Part shown: positions 2,322-48,001 of the stretch, piece after piece | Layout: every line of letters starts with the position of its first letter | Position numbering within the stretch: the first letter of the stretch is position 1 | NCBI RefSeq assembly: GCF_024298765.1 | Contig: NZ_CP101210.1 | Reading direction: 5' to 3' (one strand) | Length of the DNA: 64,000 nt | Source: Escherichia coli | GTDB lineage: Bacteria; Pseudomonadota; Gammaproteobacteria; Enterobacterales; Enterobacteriaceae | The notes under the pieces: generated by a model | The model's database searches: none | What the model saw: the letters and a program-made list of their open reading frames with translations, nothing else | Told to the model about the DNA's origin: nothing | Made by a program: the position numbers and the translations under genes

Positions 2322-3131
2322 CTAATTCGGGCGCTCACAAAGTGGGGCTAAATATTCATATAACGTTGCTGACGAAAAGGAGACATCGCCACAGGCACGT
2401 ACGGGCATCACTGGCATTAACGCATTACAAATAACCATCTCATCTGCCTGCAACGCCTCCTCCAGCGAGGCTTGCACTTCGACAAGCTGATAAGAGGATT
2501 GTGCCAGCAAACGGATACAGAATTGTCGCATAATGCCGTTAACACCTGCCTGATCCAGTCGCGGCGTATAAACTACGTTGCCCTTCCGCCAGAACAAATT
2601 AGCCGCACAGCATTCCGTAACCCACCCTTCGCTGTCAAGGACCAGCGCCTCATCAGCGTTTGTCTGCTCAAGATGAGAGCGGATCAATACTTGCTCAAGC
2701 CGATTAAGATGTTTAATACCTGCAAGATGAGGATTGCGCCCCAGCCGCACCGGGCTTAGCGCCAACGTCATCCCCTCGTTACGCAAACGGTCGTAATGTG
2801 CGGGATAAACCGTAACGGAGAGAATCCGCGTTGCCGGTCCGCTGTTCAATGTGCTGTATCCTCGCCCGCCACTACCGCGACTGATCACCACTTTCAGCAC
2901 ACCATTTTGCTGTTCTGCTGCCAGCGTTTTCATCTCTAGTTCAAGCTGAGGCCAGAAGTCACAGGAAATCATCAACCGCTGACAAGCATCCTGTAGTCGC
3001 TGGATATGCGCCGATAACAAACTGACTTTACCGTCGATAACTCTGGCGGTGGTAAAACAACCATCACCAAACTGCGTTGCCCGATCGCTTACTGCCAGCG
3101 ATTCCTGCTTATGACCGTTAATTAAGAACAT
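2322..3131 (-). CDS. pabC: aminodeoxychorismate lyase
   Basis: 269-aa ORF starting [28 protein letters not shown]; synteny. Confidence 0.9.
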
Positions 3132-3199
3132 ACCGGCTCCTTATCAGAGAATTGTTAGTGTGGCAGCATGTTCACTACGGAACAAGTCGGAATAAAAGC

Positions 3200-3905
3200 T
3201 AATAAATATCCTCCGGCATAGCCGGAGGTTTTTCAAATGCGCCTATAAGGCTCTCTTACCAGCCGCGCCCTAACAGGCGCACACGATCTGACATTTGCAT
3301 CCAACTTCGTTACTTACGGCCCGTAAACGGGCTGCCCGGATAGGGAATCGATAACTGCTCTCCCATTTTATCCTCTTCAAGCTGGTGCTTTATGTAATCC
3401 TGTATCTTCGCCGTGTTCTTACCCACCGTATCGACGTAGTACCCTCTGCACCAGAACTCTCTGTTCCTGTATTTGAATTTCAAATCACCAAACTGCTCGT
3501 AAAGCATCAGACTGCTTTTCCCTTTCAGATATCCCATAAAGCCGGATACACTCATTTTGGGCGGGATCTCCACAAGCATATGGATATGATCTGCACAGCA
3601 TTCAGCTTCAAGAATCCGTACGCTTTTCCACTCACACAGCTTTCTCAAAATACTGCCTATTGCTCTACGCTTCTCTCTGTAGAACACTTGTCTTCGGTAT
3701 TTTGGCGCAAAAACTATGTGATATTTACAGTTCCATCGGGTGTGCGCTAAGCTCTTTTCGTTCCCCATTGGGACCCCCTTTTGATTTCTTGTTTGACACT
3801 TGCAGTTGCCAGACCGCAAGGTGTTTTAACAAATCAAAAGGGGTTTTAATAACTGGCTCAAAGCTGAAAGCTTTCCGGAACCCCCAGCCTAGCTGGGGGT
3901 TTTCT
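3200..3905 (-). mobile_element. IS200-family insertion sequence (~0.7 kb); ends approximate
   Basis: Single Y1/HuH transposase gene plus a perfect hairpin CCCCCAGC-ctag-GCTGGGGG (~3871-3889) upstream of tnpA, as in IS200; sits in what should be a short pabC-fabF spacer. Confidence 0.75.
3310..3768 (-). CDS. tnpA: IS200 transposase TnpA (IS200/IS605 family, Y1 HuH)
   Basis: 152 aa from MGNEKSLAHTRWNCKYHIVFAPKYRR, with HuH motif ADHIHMLV and a catalytic Tyr region; track ORF trimmed to the internal Met. Confidence 0.9.
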   Translation of the reverse strand: MGNEKSLAHTRWNCKYHIVFAPKYRRQVFYREKRRAIGSILRKLCEWKSVRILEAECCADHIHMLVEIPPKMSVSGFMGYLKGKSSLMLYEQFGDLKFKYRNREFWCRGYYVDTVGKNTAKIQDYIKHQLEEDKMGEQLSIPYPGSPFTGRK

Positions 3906-3914
3906 GTGCACAAG

Positions 3915-3940
3915 AAAAAAGGCCCGCAAGCGGACCTTTT
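3915..3940 (-). terminator. Rho-independent terminator downstream of fabF
   Basis: GC hairpin GGCCCGCAAGCGGACC flanked by an A-run and a T-run, just 3' of the fabF stop. Confidence 0.6.
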
Positions 3941-3961
3941 ATAAGGGTGGGAAATGACAAC

Positions 3962-5233
<1,272 letters not shown>

Positions 5234-16093: not shown

Positions 16094-16878
<785 letters not shown>

Positions 16879-42338: not shown

Positions 42339-42468
42339 CACAGCAAATCCCCCTGATTTAGCGATAAAAGCTCTCTGGATTGCGCCCCCTGGAAGTCGGG
42401 CGCATAATTAGTGTGCTTATCTTTTCTTCTTATGTTCACCGCGCCTGGCGCACCAACAGCGGATTGCT

Positions 42469-42654
42469 ATGTCACCCTGTGAAAATGACACCCCTATAAA
42501 CTGGAAACGAAACCTGATCGTCGCCTGGCTAGGCTGTTTTCTTACCGGTGCCGCCTTCAGCCTGGTAATGCCCTTCTTACCCCTCTACGTTGAGCAGCTT
42601 GGCGTTACCGGCCACTCCGCCCTGAATATGTGGTCCGGTATTGTCTTCAGTATA
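42469..42654 (+). pseudogene. mdtG: mdtG 5' fragment (codons 1-62), truncated by the insertion
   Basis: [62 protein letters not shown], then out-of-context MGP-stop; the rest of the MFS protein resumes at ~46958. Confidence 0.85.
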
Positions 42655-42689
42655 ATGGGTCCCTAAACACATCATTTTAGGTATTGAAT

Positions 42690-44219
42690 ATGAGACGGGC
42701 AATCAGCTACATCAGATTTTCAAGTGAACGACAACTAAAAGGGGACTCTGTACGCAGACAATCTAAGCTGGTCACTGACTGGCTTGATAAGAACCCTGAG
42801 TTTTACTTGGATTCATCCTTGAGCTTTAAAGATTTGGGGAAAAGTGCTTTTAGTGGTAAGCACTTGAAAGGTGGCTTAGGTGACTTTTTAACCGCTATCG
42901 AGAAAGGGCTTGTTAAAGCTGGTGATACACTACTAATCGAGAGTTTAGACCGTCTCTCACGTCAGGATATTGATATTGCTTCTGAGCTATTACGTCGTAT
43001 CTTAAGGGCTGGTGTAGATATAGTCACACTGAGCGATGGTGAACATTACACACGAGAAAGTTTAAAAGACCCGTTATCCCTGATTAAAAGCATTCTGATA
43101 ATGCAGCGGGCGCATGAGGAAAGTCTGAGGAAGTCTGAGCGTGTCCAAGCTGCATGGAACCGTAAAAAAGAACTCATCTCCGAAGGTATCAAGGTATCTA
43201 GGCGTTGTCCTGCATGGTTAAGGCTGAATGATGACCGTCGAACATTCACTATCATCCCCGATAAAGTGGAAGTTGTTAAACGAGCATTTGACCTGAGATT
43301 ACAGGGTTTAAGCTTTTGGGCTATCACCAGAACTTTAAACGATGAAGGCCACTTGTCATTGAATCAATACACACCTAAACAAAAGGGATGGTCTGATACT
43401 GCTGTAAAGAAACTACTCAGAAATCGTGCTGTGATTGGATGTTTCACACCTGCTGGACGTGAAGAAGTTCAGGGTTACTACCCCGCAATAATCAGTGAGT
43501 CACTATTCTATCGAGTACAGCAACTGAACACAGGGCAATATGGTAGGGCTTCTGTATCAAGTAATCCGCTATCAGTCAACTTGTTCAGGGGTATCATCAA
43601 ATGTTCTGAGTGTGGGGCTACTATTGTTCTTGGTGGATATGCCTTAAAACGTTTTGGGATGTACAGATGCCCTAATCGTTCAGCTAACAGGTGTAGTGCA
43701 AAGGCTATCAGTCGTAAGCAAACGGATACAACTATCCTTTACATGCTCGCATTATGCGACCGTTTTGAAACTGAAAATACTGACACTATTGATAGCCTTA
43801 AATTACAGCGTGAAGATTTGCAGCGTAAAATCTCAAAAATGGCAGAACTCGCTATTGAACTCGATGACATGACAATTATCACAGAGAAATTACGTGATAT
43901 GAAGAATGCGCTATCAAAACTCAATCATGATATCGAAGAGGAAACAAAGCGGATAAAGGCCATCACAACTGGAAGCCTCAAAGATATTGACAGGACAACA
44001 AAGGAAGGGATGATAGAGACACAGCTACTTATCAAGGGCGTACTCAAAGAAATAGTTATAGATGCCGCTAAACGTCGCTGTAAAGTGACTTTTCACAACG
44101 GTAAGGTAATTGACCTACCTATAACAGAAAACCCCTCAGAGGACGTTACAGAGGCCATACAGTCGCTTTCTGAAGTCACTGAGAGGGGTTTAATAGATGT
44201 TGATGTAGTAGCGATTTAG
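42690..44219 (+). CDS. large serine recombinase (integrase)
   Basis: 509 aa from ATG 42690 (track begins 6 nt earlier at TTG): N-terminal resolvase domain with catalytic YIRFSSERQ, recombinase domain, Cys-rich zinc ribbon CSECG...CPNRSANRC, C-terminal coiled coil. Confidence 0.88.
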   Translation: MRRAISYIRFSSERQLKGDSVRRQSKLVTDWLDKNPEFYLDSSLSFKDLGKSAFSGKHLKGGLGDFLTAIEKGLVKAGDTLLIESLDRLSRQDIDIASELLRRILRAGVDIVTLSDGEHYTRESLKDPLSLIKSILIMQRAHEESLRKSERVQAAWNRKKELISEGIKVSRRCPAWLRLNDDRRTFTIIPDKVEVVKRAFDLRLQGLSFWAITRTLNDEGHLSLNQYTPKQKGWSDTAVKKLLRNRAVIGCFTPAGREEVQGYYPAIISESLFYRVQQLNTGQYGRASVSSNPLSVNLFRGIIKCSECGATIVLGGYALKRFGMYRCPNRSANRCSAKAISRKQTDTTILYMLALCDRFETENTDTIDSLKLQREDLQRKISKMAELAIELDDMTIITEKLRDMKNALSKLNHDIEEETKRIKAITTGSLKDIDRTTKEGMIETQLLIKGVLKEIVIDAAKRRCKVTFHNGKVIDLPITENPSEDVTEAIQSLSEVTERGLIDVDVVAI

Positions 44220-45380
44220 TATCTCTTATTAGGATTCACTGAGTACTTTTTAAGCTTTGAAGCTACCCGACCAGCGTTACTGTTAGCATTGGTGAGGTTG
44301 GTTTTTTCAGCTTCTTCACAAAAAAGCTTCAGAGGTCTTCTTAACCATCCGCTAAGCAGGAGAGAGGGTGGTACATGAGAAAGAACCCTCACTTCTAAAA
44401 AGATTTTTTAGCTATTTTGCTTAAAACCATATCAAAAGATACATTTTATTGATTCAGGTCAAAGACAAAAGCATTGACAAAATGGTAAAATTGTTCACAT
44501 GACCTTACTTAACAGACTTTTTAAGAGCTTTTGAGAAGCTTGTTGAACAGACACTCTTTCTGGAGTGTTGTCTTTTACTTAAGAGGTTTGTTTAGATAAC
44601 TCTCAAGGCATCTCTTAAGAATCACTGTTAAGGTGATACTCTCCCTTCGGGTTATATCGTATCTCTTCTCCCGTTAGACAGTTTTTCCTAGCAACTTCAT
44701 AGTTATCTGTCAAGTGCCTTTGAAGATTCCATCAAGACCTCTGAATCTGACCTGATATAGATGCTGTGAAGGCATATTCTCTAGGTCTGTGTAGCTTACT
44801 TAGTGGGAAGAGAGGGATATAGTGACCATAGGGGAACCCCTCCTGTTAAAAAGACTACTTAGAAGTCTGAGACTTTAGTAAAATCTGTGAATATAGCTTC
44901 TCAGACGCTCTGTAACGCATTCTAAGCGATTTTACCACCTTATTTTAAGGTGGGTGGTACATCCCTATAGGTTACCCTAAAAATGGGGTTAAAACTCGCT
45001 ACAGAGCTTTCTATGAGGCTTGGTAGAGTTGCATAAATTTTACACAACACTTATTCAGCTTCTAAATTTTTTTATAAAAAATCGTAGTAACCCCTCTACA
45101 TTCCCCTTCACCGATAATCTTCAAAAATATCTATCACAGGTCTATACCTGCTAAGTACCCGTCACTACGCCTAAGTGGTCCCCTTTGCAAAATTTTAAAA
45201 TATCTATTGACTTTTTATGTGAACTGTTATAAAGACCGCTCCATCTCTTAGGCATACCGTTATAGCATACTAAAAAGGTATAGCTAACCCCCTGTAAAAA
45301 CCATACCGATTAGCCTTGTAAAACACTTTATCGGTACATTATACTCAACTCATCAAATGAGTAAGGCAAATGAGTATATT

Positions 45381-45926
45381 ATGGCTAACATTGGTTATAT
45401 CCGAGTTTCATCAATCCAGCAGATTACAGACCGTCAACTTGAAGGGGTCGTACTGGATAAGATATTTACTGATAAAGCATCTGGGAAGAATACAGACCGT
45501 CCACAACTAAAGGCTATGCTCGATTATGTTCGTGAAGGTGATGTTATCCATGTACACGACTTGTCACGTTTAGGGCGCTCTACCGTGGATGTATTAACGC
45601 TGGTGGATAAACTTTCACAGAAAGGTATCAAGGTTCACTTTCACAAAGAAGGTCTGATAACTGGTGACGATAACCCCACGTCTAAGATGATTCTCACAAT
45701 CTTTTCAGCAGTGGCTGAAGCTGAACGTAAAATGATGCTTGAGCGTCAACGAGAAGGCTATGAAGCTGCTAAAGCTGCTGGTCGTGTAGTTGGAAGGGGT
45801 AACGGTAAAGCGGTTGACAGAGAAGGTATTAAAGCTGCTCTTGCTGCTGGTGGTTCAATCGCTAAAGTAGCCGCTCAATTCAACGTTGCCAAGTCAACTG
45901 TACAGCGTATTAAAGCTGAAGATTAA
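45381..45926 (+). CDS. small serine recombinase, resolvase/invertase family
   Basis: ~181 aa from MANIGYIRVSS (catalytic Ser), IFTDKASG, LSRLGRS, SAVAEAERK, C-terminal HTH; the track ORF starts 8 codons earlier at 45357. Confidence 0.85.
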   Translation: MANIGYIRVSSIQQITDRQLEGVVLDKIFTDKASGKNTDRPQLKAMLDYVREGDVIHVHDLSRLGRSTVDVLTLVDKLSQKGIKVHFHKEGLITGDDNPTSKMILTIFSAVAEAERKMMLERQREGYEAAKAAGRVVGRGNGKAVDREGIKAALAAGGSIAKVAAQFNVAKSTVQRIKAED

Positions 45927-45939
45927 GTCAGGAAATACA

Positions 45940-46623
45940 TTAGATTTTTCTTCCAAATAAACTTGGGAGATTCTTACGGTTTCTTGCTTGCATCATTATT
46001 TCTGGGCTAACAAGTTTTTTTAATTCGCTTCTGTACTCATCAATAGAACACTCATCCGCAACAAGTTTTGAAATCAGGTCTTCAATAGACATAACATCTT
46101 GTTGCAGGAAATCAAGTTCACGAGACAAGTGCTTTTTTTGATTCTCTAACTTTCCTATCTCAGCATTTAAGTTATCTACATCTGTCGCCAATTTCTCTGC
46201 CTGAGATTTCAAATTACTTGTATCTTCTTTTTCTCTTTCGATAAGGTTTTTTTGTTTCTCAATCTTCAACTTTGACGTCAGTCTAGCTGACTCTTCAAGA
46301 TTTTCAGCTTCTACTTTTTGTCTTGCTCGCCATGCGGTTGCCTTGATTTGAAGTAGTGTTACAAGGTTGCTGAAGTAAGGGAAAAAGGTCGCCAAAATGA
46401 ACCCTAGCCCTACGGGATAGCATAATGTTTTTAGATAGAAGTCTTCCGTCGATGTGATTTGTTGAATACGAGTAACAACCGAAGCCTCACTAAGACACAT
46501 GATAGCAATGCTTTTCCAGTTAAATCCCACCCATGACAAAATGATGTAGCCCCATAAAGGGTTAGCTACTCGTTCCTTCAACGCCTGCTTAACTGATTCC
46601 GTGATACTTTCTTCACTACTCAC
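45940..46623 (-). CDS. hypothetical membrane-anchored coiled-coil protein (227 aa)
   Basis: Two N-terminal hydrophobic helices (PLWGYIILSWVGFNW..., VGLGFILATFFPYFSNLVTLL), then ~120 aa of charged heptad-like sequence; no family recognised. Confidence 0.65.
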   Translation of the reverse strand: MSSEESITESVKQALKERVANPLWGYIILSWVGFNWKSIAIMCLSEASVVTRIQQITSTEDFYLKTLCYPVGLGFILATFFPYFSNLVTLLQIKATAWRARQKVEAENLEESARLTSKLKIEKQKNLIEREKEDTSNLKSQAEKLATDVDNLNAEIGKLENQKKHLSRELDFLQQDVMSIEDLISKLVADECSIDEYRSELKKLVSPEIMMQARNRKNLPSLFGRKI

Positions 46624-46957
46624 AATTACTGCTCCATAGAAAACTCTGGTTTGAGAAATTTTAATGCGAATCCAATCAGTTAGATAGACCTGTAAATAGC
46701 AATTTTATAGAAGTCGAGAGAGGGATGACTAACACCCTGCATAGTTTCCTGAAAAGAGACTTCGCATATTATCTATATATTTCAATAAGTTATGCTAAAA
46801 AGGAACTATACCAATACTGCATAGATTCTGCGTAAAACTGCTTGGATACTTGGAAATCCACCATTAAATTGCATAGTCATTCACCTGATAAAGCCTGTTA
46901 TTAACAGGTGATAGGATTCGGATGTTCTCATAGTGTATTTAGGGAATTAATATCAGC

Positions 46958-48001
46958 ATTACATTTTTATTTTCGGCCATCGCCTCACCGTTTTGGGGTG
47001 GACTCGCCGACCGTAAAGGCCGAAAACTCATGCTATTACGCTCTGCCCTCGGCATGGGCATCGTGATGGTGTTGATGGGACTGGCACAAAATATCTGGCA
47101 GTTTTTGATCCTGCGGGCGCTTCTTGGGTTACTTGGCGGATTTGTCCCCAACGCTAATGCTCTTATCGCCACACAAGTACCGCGTAATAAAAGCGGCTGG
47201 GCGCTGGGTACGCTCTCCACAGGCGGCGTTAGTGGTGCGTTGCTCGGCCCAATGGCTGGCGGCCTGCTCGCCGATAGCTACGGCTTACGTCCGGTATTCT
47301 TTATTACCGCCAGTGTGCTCATACTCTGCTTTTTCGTCACCCTGTTCTGCATCAGAGAAAAATTCCAGCCGGTCAGCAAAAAAGAGATGCTGCACATGCG
47401 GGAAGTGGTGACATCACTTAAAAACCCGAAACTGGTACTCAGCCTGTTTGTCACCACGTTAATCATCCAGGTGGCGACAGGCTCAATTGCCCCCATTCTG
47501 ACGCTGTATGTCCGCGAACTGGCGGGTAACGTCAGTAACGTCGCCTTTATCAGTGGCATGATCGCCTCGGTGCCAGGCGTGGCGGCTCTGCTAAGCGCAC
47601 CACGACTCGGCAAACTTGGCGATCGAATCGGACCCGAAAAGATCCTGATTACAGCGCTGATCTTTTCTGTACTGCTGTTGATCCCAATGTCTTACGTTCA
47701 GACGCCATTGCAACTTGGGATTTTACGTTTTTTGCTCGGTGCCGCCGATGGTGCACTACTCCCCGCCGTACAGACACTGTTGGTTTACAACTCGAGCAAC
47801 CAGATCGCCGGGCGTATCTTCAGCTATAACCAATCGTTTCGTGATATTGGCAACGTTACCGGACCATTGATGGGAGCAGCGATTTCAGCGAACTACGGTT
47901 TCAGAGCGGTATTTCTCGTCACCGCTGGCGTCGTGTTATTCAACGCAGTCTATTCATGGAACAGTCTACGTCGTCGTCGAATACCCCAGGTATCGAACTG
48001 A
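46958..48001 (+). pseudogene. mdtG: mdtG 3' fragment (codons ~63-408), separated from its start
   Basis: Frame resumes ...[35 protein letters not shown]... to the native stop; the track shows only the internal-Met ORF 47030-48001. Confidence 0.85.

Follow-up and report, generated by a model that had tools for sequence, protein, structure and literature searches.

The spacer between fabF and pabC carries a complete copy of IS200C, 711 bp long, at positions 3201–3911 of the window (the whole stretch of 64,000 nt that was analysed) on the minus strand. We put the probability at about 90% that a full-length, apparently functional IS200C (IS200/IS605 family, IS200 group), inserted just 3' of the TTCTT of the fabF terminator, is the right explanation of this region. 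The window is antiparallel to the K-12 map, and its gene order on the minus strand is holB, tmk, yceG/mltG, pabC (2322–3131), tnpA, fabF (3962–5203), acpP, fabG, fabD, and fabH. The element, its gene, and its target are as follows.

3201–3911, minus strand: IS200C. The top strand of the element is the minus strand of the window; its left end is position 3911 and its right end position 3201.

3310–3768, minus strand: tnpA, encoding a Y1 HUH transposase of 152 aa (Pfam Y1_Tnp; HUH residues H61/H63, catalytic Y125, and Q129).

3912–3940, minus strand: the intrinsic terminator of the host gene fabF, which is the insertion target (terminator scan; the same sequence stands in the empty site).

The ends were taken from a comparison of the occupied site with the empty site of an E. 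coli B-derived strain (L001). The empty site is ...GGGCCTTTTTTCTT|AGCTTTTATTCC...; read from fabF to pabC, it is ...AAAAGGTCCGCTTGCGGGCCTTTTTTCTT|AGCTTTTATTCCGAC... in the B-derived strain, and the occupied site is ...CTTTTTTCTT|GTGCACAGAAAACCCCCAGC ... GCCGGAGGATATTTATT|AGCTTTTATTCC... in the same direction. The junction was derived from the flanks common to both sequences and agrees with the 690-bp span of the empty sites. As the left flank and the element both end in TT, the boundary can be shifted by 2 nt. Removal of the 711 bp restores the empty site exactly, and no target duplication or footprint is present at fabF-pabC. The initial annotation had placed an IS200 copy between the fabF terminator and pabC. 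The comparison confirms this place and supplies the exact ends; the span proposed at the time, 3200–3940, was too wide because it also takes in the host terminator at 3912–3940.

The earlier assignment to the IS200 family is borne out by the Y1_Tnp match, the 711-bp insert, and the RefSeq annotation as IS200C. The 711 bp are 100% identical to the annotated copy at the same coordinates in strain 104, and annotated E. coli copies at other loci share 699–710 of the 711 nt (98–99.9%). The name IS200C follows from this near-identity together with the transposase WP_000526135.1. tnpA is the sole ORF with family support and tnpB is absent, as expected of the IS200 group (tnpA only, about 0.7 kb). Terminal inverted repeats are likewise absent, with 11 of 40 positions matching between the left end and the reverse complement of the right end, and both ends carry subterminal hairpins instead (3879–3901 and 3210–3228). 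Insertion without duplication, 3' of a short sequence that resembles the right terminus (flank TTCTT, terminus TTATT), is also characteristic of the group. IS200C at fabF-pabC is already known in the sense that RefSeq labels the element at the same locus in more than 200 genomes. Among the literature covered, a paper that pairs IS200 with fabF or pabC was not found.

TnpA matches the full Pfam profile PF01797 Y1_Tnp (“Transposase IS200 like”) with E = 3.8e-38 and 130.7 bits against a cutoff of 23. It is identical to WP_000526135.1 (“IS200/IS605-like element IS200C family transposase”), which has the same coordinates in strain 104, and tnpA contains no frameshift. The suggestion that this is an intact IS200 transposase therefore stands. 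The closest solved relatives are 2ec2 and 2f5g (IS200-family transposases), 2a6m (Helicobacter pylori IS608 TnpA), and 2xm3 (ISDra2 TnpA). In alignments, H61-I-H63 and Y125...Q129 line up with IS608 (Y127/Q131), so that both the HUH motif and the catalytic Tyr of the Y1 HUH enzymes of IS200/IS605 are present. By analogy with IS608 and ISDra2, transposition would run via a single-stranded circular intermediate and would be catalysed by TnpA. The reading of the copy as a decayed relic was considered and rejected. IS200 is notoriously inactive. In Salmonella IS200, Y125F is the catalytically dead TnpA mutant (PMC4513863).

Folding, Rfam searches, and the published Salmonella map gave the following features inside the element.

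3879–3901, minus strand: perfect left-end hairpin AACCCCCAGC-TAG-GCTGGGGGTT with a 10-bp stem and a 3-nt loop (folding; Rfam model positions 1–23).

3778–3901, minus strand: Rfam RF01405 (STnc490) match in the tnpA 5' UTR, sense strand (146.4 bits, gathering score 56, model positions 1–124, full length).

3775–3843, minus strand: 5'-UTR stem-loop that pairs with the Shine-Dalgarno sequence AAGGGGGT (MFE fold; role from PMC4513863).

3760–3849, plus strand: predicted art200 antisense sRNA of about 90 nt (placed by homology to the Salmonella map, PMC4513863).

3201–3228, minus strand: right end, consisting of hairpin CCTCCGGC-TAT-GCCGGAGG (3210–3228) and the 9-nt tail ATATTTATT (3201–3209) (folding).

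The left-end hairpin is unique in the window, and none of 100 shuffles gave a match. It had been described earlier as an intact upstream hairpin with the 4-nt loop ctag; the hairpin is indeed intact, and its loop is the 3-nt TAG. In Salmonella IS200, the left-end hairpin acts in both directions as a Rho-independent terminator of impinging transcription (Ellis 2015, PMC4513863; Ellis 2017, PMC5435999) and stops about 85% of upstream transcripts (PMC5435999). Presumably, the hairpin at 3879–3901 is also the subterminal hairpin to which TnpA binds. At the right end, the 9-nt tail stops at the right cleavage site, and a terminator scan of both strands finds that hairpin and tail have terminator form in both directions. 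In a Vibrio copy, the right-end stem has changed in a compensatory way (CCACCGGC/GCCGGTGG).

The whole tnpA 5' region folds with an MFE of −60.5 kcal/mol (z = −4.4). Its sense strand agrees with the consensus structure of RF01405 at a score well over the gathering threshold, which, together with the work of Ellis (PMC4513863, PMC5435999), bears out the earlier remark that IS200 elements produce small RNAs from their 5' regions. The match lies on the tnpA sense strand and takes in the left-end terminator hairpin, yet PMC4513863 describes art200, the sRNA once named STnc490, as running antisense to the tnpA 5' UTR. It seems that the Rfam model stands for the 5' tnpA RNA of the sense strand, unless its strand is ambiguous. 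A plus-strand match to STnc490 (18.8 bits, far under the gathering score) was dismissed as chance, as were matches to ctRNA_p42d and asX2 over the fabF terminator, also far under their gathering scores.

For Salmonella IS200, the published map has the terminator repeat at nt 12–34, the stem-loop at nt 69–138, the tnpA start near nt 40, and an art200 of 90 nt that starts at nt 153/154 (PMC4513863). Transferred to IS200C, this would place art200 at about 3760–3849 on the plus strand, with a start complementary to tnpA codon 3 and an end after the stem-loop plus TTTTAATAA. Promoter-like hexamers lie 5' of it (TTTACA at 3724–3729, TAAGCT at 3748–3753). By the same analogy, IS200C would be kept quiet at three levels, each known for Salmonella IS200 and conserved in sequence here: the left-end hairpin would terminate incoming transcription, the 5'-UTR stem-loop would hide the tnpA ribosome-binding site, and art200 would block tnpA translation.

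Salmonella enterica IS200, the prototype (707–709 bp), is one of the closest characterised systems. It shares with IS200C the single tnpA, a left-end terminator hairpin near nt 12–34, an art200 region antisense to the 5' UTR, the catalytic Y125, and a full-length STnc490 match; the Rfam name itself comes from the Salmonella IS200 sRNA. IS200C differs in being a 711-bp E. coli variant, and the likeness is drawn from the published map and Rfam. Regulation of invF in trans is a feature of the Salmonella element. IS1541 of Yersinia pestis and Yersinia pseudotuberculosis is identical to IS200C at 623 of 711 nt and at 144 of 152 TnpA residues. It has the same left-end hairpin and the same right end (hairpin plus ATATTTATT), whereas the left ends differ over their first 12 nt (GTGCCCAGAAAA in IS1541, GTGCACAGAAAA in IS200C), and in Yersinia its copy number is much higher, with tandem copies present.

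At the insertion point, the left end of IS200C directly adjoins the TTCTT of the fabF terminator, whose hairpin AAAAGGTCCG-CTTG-CGGGCCTTTT occupies 3917–3940 and whose T-rich tail ends in TTCTT (3912–3916). Seven other E. coli copies of IS200C were taken for comparison, and one of them (L129, with a frameshifted tnpA and without the exact hairpin 19-mer) was left out. Each of the six others begins 7–9 nt past the terminator hairpin of the upstream gene, so that all seven E. coli junctions (fabF, glnS, galU, icd in two strains, carB, and plaP) adjoin the terminator of a co-oriented upstream gene.

For a wider set, species-representative genomes were scanned for the left-end hairpin. Among the matches listed, IS200-like copies occur in Yersinia, Vibrio, Brenneria, Edwardsiella, Oxalobacter, Mailhella/Desulfovibrio, Bacillota, and others, giving 94 distinct left junctions, a set that a few genomes dominate (Y. 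pestis, Vibrio ruber, one Bacillota MAG, and Mailhella). A strict hairpin with a T tail precedes 77 of the 94 junctions (82%) and a GC-cored hairpin lies no more than 14 nt away in 85 (90%), among the matches listed, in an association that rests on fixed copies, so that survivorship could contribute beside target choice. Hairpin and T tail were found at 0.7% of random positions in the same loci, at 8.3% of positions after T-rich pentamers, and at 9.7% of intergenic T-rich positions (14.9% in this window). Among the matches listed, the flank has T at −1 in 93 and at −2 in 92 of the 94 junctions, with the consensus TTNTT, and the distance from hairpin to junction has a median of 7 nt and falls at 6–10 nt in 73 of 85. 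The IS1541 copies examined have the same preference for terminator-abutting sites as IS200C. As judged from these junctions, the IS200 group is shown to prefer a TTNTT that follows a GC-rich hairpin at a distance of 6–10 nt on its 3' side, in the strand where the hairpin precedes the Ts. The place of IS200C right behind the fabF terminator matches this rule and is not accidental.

The target also looks like the right end of the element, because the flank TTCTT corresponds to its own terminus TTATT, 9 nt past the right-end hairpin. In Y. pestis NCTC5923, tandem IS1541 copies (L097, L098, and L100) are joined so that the right end ...GCCGGAGGATATTTATT of one runs straight into the left end GTGCCCAGAAAA of the next. 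Hence, the right end itself serves as a target. A tentative reading, which we would not yet call probable, is that the IS200 group is “terminator-homing,” i.e., that TnpA picks an intrinsic terminator (hairpin and T-tract) on the lagging-strand template because it mimics the right end of the element, with its hairpin, T-rich tail of about 9 nt, and final ...TTNTT.

Orientation is in line with the family. GC skew on the plus strand of the window is negative throughout (cumulative −0.58), which puts the top strand of IS200C, the minus strand, on the lagging-strand template. A bias for this template is reported for IS200/IS605 and is to be expected if a single strand moves by peel-and-paste transposition (PMC5027513). 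Where a gene is transcribed in the direction of replication, its terminator puts the hairpin and T-run on exactly this strand.

IS608 (H. pylori) and ISDra2 (Deinococcus radiodurans) resemble IS200C in the HUH/Y1 TnpA with aligned catalytic residues, the subterminal hairpins, the absence of inverted repeats and duplication, the insertion 3' of a short sequence, and the use of the lagging-strand template (PMC5027513; PMC2806898). They differ in that their targets are bare TTAC and TTGAT, for which a need for an adjacent hairpin is unreported, and in that they carry tnpB; IS200C targets TTNTT beside a hairpin and is without tnpB. If TnpA does home to terminators, its target is, unlike theirs, not a bare oligonucleotide. 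Bacterial group IIC introns also home just 3' of intrinsic terminator stem-loops. The likeness is in target choice only, as these introns are unrelated (ribozyme plus reverse transcriptase, retrohoming).

The same junctions could arise by purifying selection alone, if IS200 inserts at any T-rich ssDNA without recognition of the hairpin and only the harmless copies behind terminators survive. All data are fixed copies, with no de novo events among them, the invariant part of the flank is merely TT, or TTNTT, and a bioRxiv preprint reports terminator-like sequences as over-represented upstream of IS200/IS605, which it reads as a persistence trait and as a limit on the expression of the transposase (10.1101/2025.07.22.666184). 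Selection would have to lift a hairpin frequency of 9.7% at intergenic T-rich positions (14.9% in this window) to the 82–90% of IS junctions, although such positions should often tolerate insertions too. It also leaves aside the narrow spacing between hairpin and junction (73 of 85 within 6–10 nt, among the matches listed) and the fact that the right end of the element has the same hairpin-plus-tail form and is itself used as a target. Hence, we regard selection alone as rather unlikely. The terminator rule is not claimed as new, and the older IS200/IS1541 literature may already describe the target.

The scan for the left-end hairpin gave further observations. Its exact 19-nt sequence CCCCCAGCTAGGCTGGGGG occurs in distant taxa (L003–L122), namely Oxalobacter, Vibrio, Peptococcaceae, Bacillota, Mailhella/Desulfovibrio, and Elusimicrobia and Saccharibacteria MAGs, with many of these copies located where a contig ends. 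The pattern points to wide horizontal spread or else to strong constraint on the hairpin. In the Ruminococcus MAG RUG14215 (L085–L095) and in L032, the same hairpin stands after ...GGGCTTCGCCCGTTAAAGAAATA and is followed by ATGCTTATT and then by variable sequence, which resembles the right end of a different IS200/IS605-type element with the same hairpin. In Dickeya undicola (L074), the hairpin at 699–717 has GTCTATAGAAAA at one flank and the reverse complement of that sequence, TTTTCTATAGAC, at the opposite flank, forming an extended perfect palindrome with no tnpA after it. This is possibly a solo or miniature derivative.

The initial annotation had also proposed that the insertion could alter read-through or the activity of the pabC promoter. 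This is borne out in part only, and the promoter itself is untouched. The relevant feature is given below.

3140–3166, minus strand: native pabC-proximal promoter CTGCCA (3161–3166), 15 nt, GATAAG (3140–3145), in agreement with the sequence that PMC3946193 lists for the fabF-pabC spacer.

The combination CTGCCA-15-GATAAG is a published constitutive promoter (PMC3946193). No base differs from the empty site in the 68 bp from IS200C to the pabC ATG, so that the promoter is kept, downstream of the element. A sigma-70 consensus scan of 3000–4100 at a threshold of 9 of 12 returned no promoter; the art200 and pabC promoters both score below this threshold and were therefore placed from the literature by sequence. 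On the upstream side, the fabF terminator hairpin and its 9-nt T-tract are unchanged by the insertion. The read-through part of the proposal survives as a plausible inference. In K-12, some acpP-fabF transcripts run on into pabC-mltG as minor read-through (PMC6131387). In carriers, such transcripts would have to cross 711 bp and two further terminator-like hairpins before pabC-mltG. Because the left-end terminator and the right-end hairpin intervene, it is plausible that pabC-mltG-tmk-holB is better insulated from fab transcription. The insertion is evidently tolerated.

With a 1,401-bp query across the locus, the occupied site was found in 219 of 5,426 complete E. coli genomes (about 4%), and nearly all others (about 96%) gave a two-piece match with a span of 690 bp, corresponding to the empty site. 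A 200-bp query for the left junction matched 221 genomes, and in at least 60 the identity was 100%. The identical junction points to a single origin of the 221 copies, i.e., the carriers probably share one ancestral insertion. Among the 60 carriers listed, 37 came from chickens, turkeys, and other birds (including APEC O78:H4 and APEC O2-211) and 15 from humans. APEC of serotype O78:H4 is typically ST117.

Such a distribution, with one identical junction in 221 genomes of a successful and largely avian-associated lineage, could suggest that the host has co-opted IS200C, either for the insulation of pabC-mltG-tmk-holB or for 5' tnpA/art200 RNAs that regulate in trans. The Salmonella 5' tnpA RNA does regulate invF and virulence regulons (PMC5435999; PMC12594629), and read-through into pabC-mltG is present in K-12 (PMC6131387). 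Yet clonal fixation by descent requires no benefit, carriers hold 5–12 matches to the 200-bp junction query, so that the same RNAs could come from several other IS200 copies, and a trans target in E. coli was not found in the literature covered. Co-option is in our view improbable. Finally, IS200/IS605 elements excise precisely and leave a site that looks as if it had never been occupied (PMC5027513), but the idea that the IS is native at this locus and was lost from 96% of genomes was rejected as very improbable, given the 4% occupancy against 5,200-odd genomes with the empty site, junctions that are 100% identical, only 4 SNPs against strain 104 in the first 43.7 kb, which indicate a young clade, and the presence of the same IS at many other loci. 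The insertion behind the fabF terminator thus remains the reading on which we rely.

Two other parts of the window are of separate interest. At 16094–16878 (plus strand), a DUF1778 and GNAT N-acetyltransferase pair with the look of a toxin-antitoxin system lies between rne and flgL (strain 104 annotation); K-12 is not known to have genes between rne and flgL. At about 42400–47000, a low-GC island (0.42–0.47) with recombinase-family genes is bordered by lpxL and by an mdtG truncated at its N terminus. Strain 104 carries a 1,253-bp ISEc52 at 43740 inside a recombinase gene; the window is without this ISEc52.

As an annotation fact, IS200C at fabF-pabC matters little, being known and annotated. 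Occupancy of the site is of use as a clean yes/no marker of one E. coli lineage with many poultry and APEC isolates, and the insertion offers a natural test case for whether K-12-type read-through from acpP-fabF feeds the expression of pabC-mltG-tmk-holB. For the family, the rule of TTNTT 3' of a terminator hairpin could improve the calling of IS ends and could help to explain the low cost of IS200-group elements. If terminator-homing is true, it would explain why this copy and most others across phyla sit exactly where the terminator of a gene ends, as well as their harmlessness and persistence.
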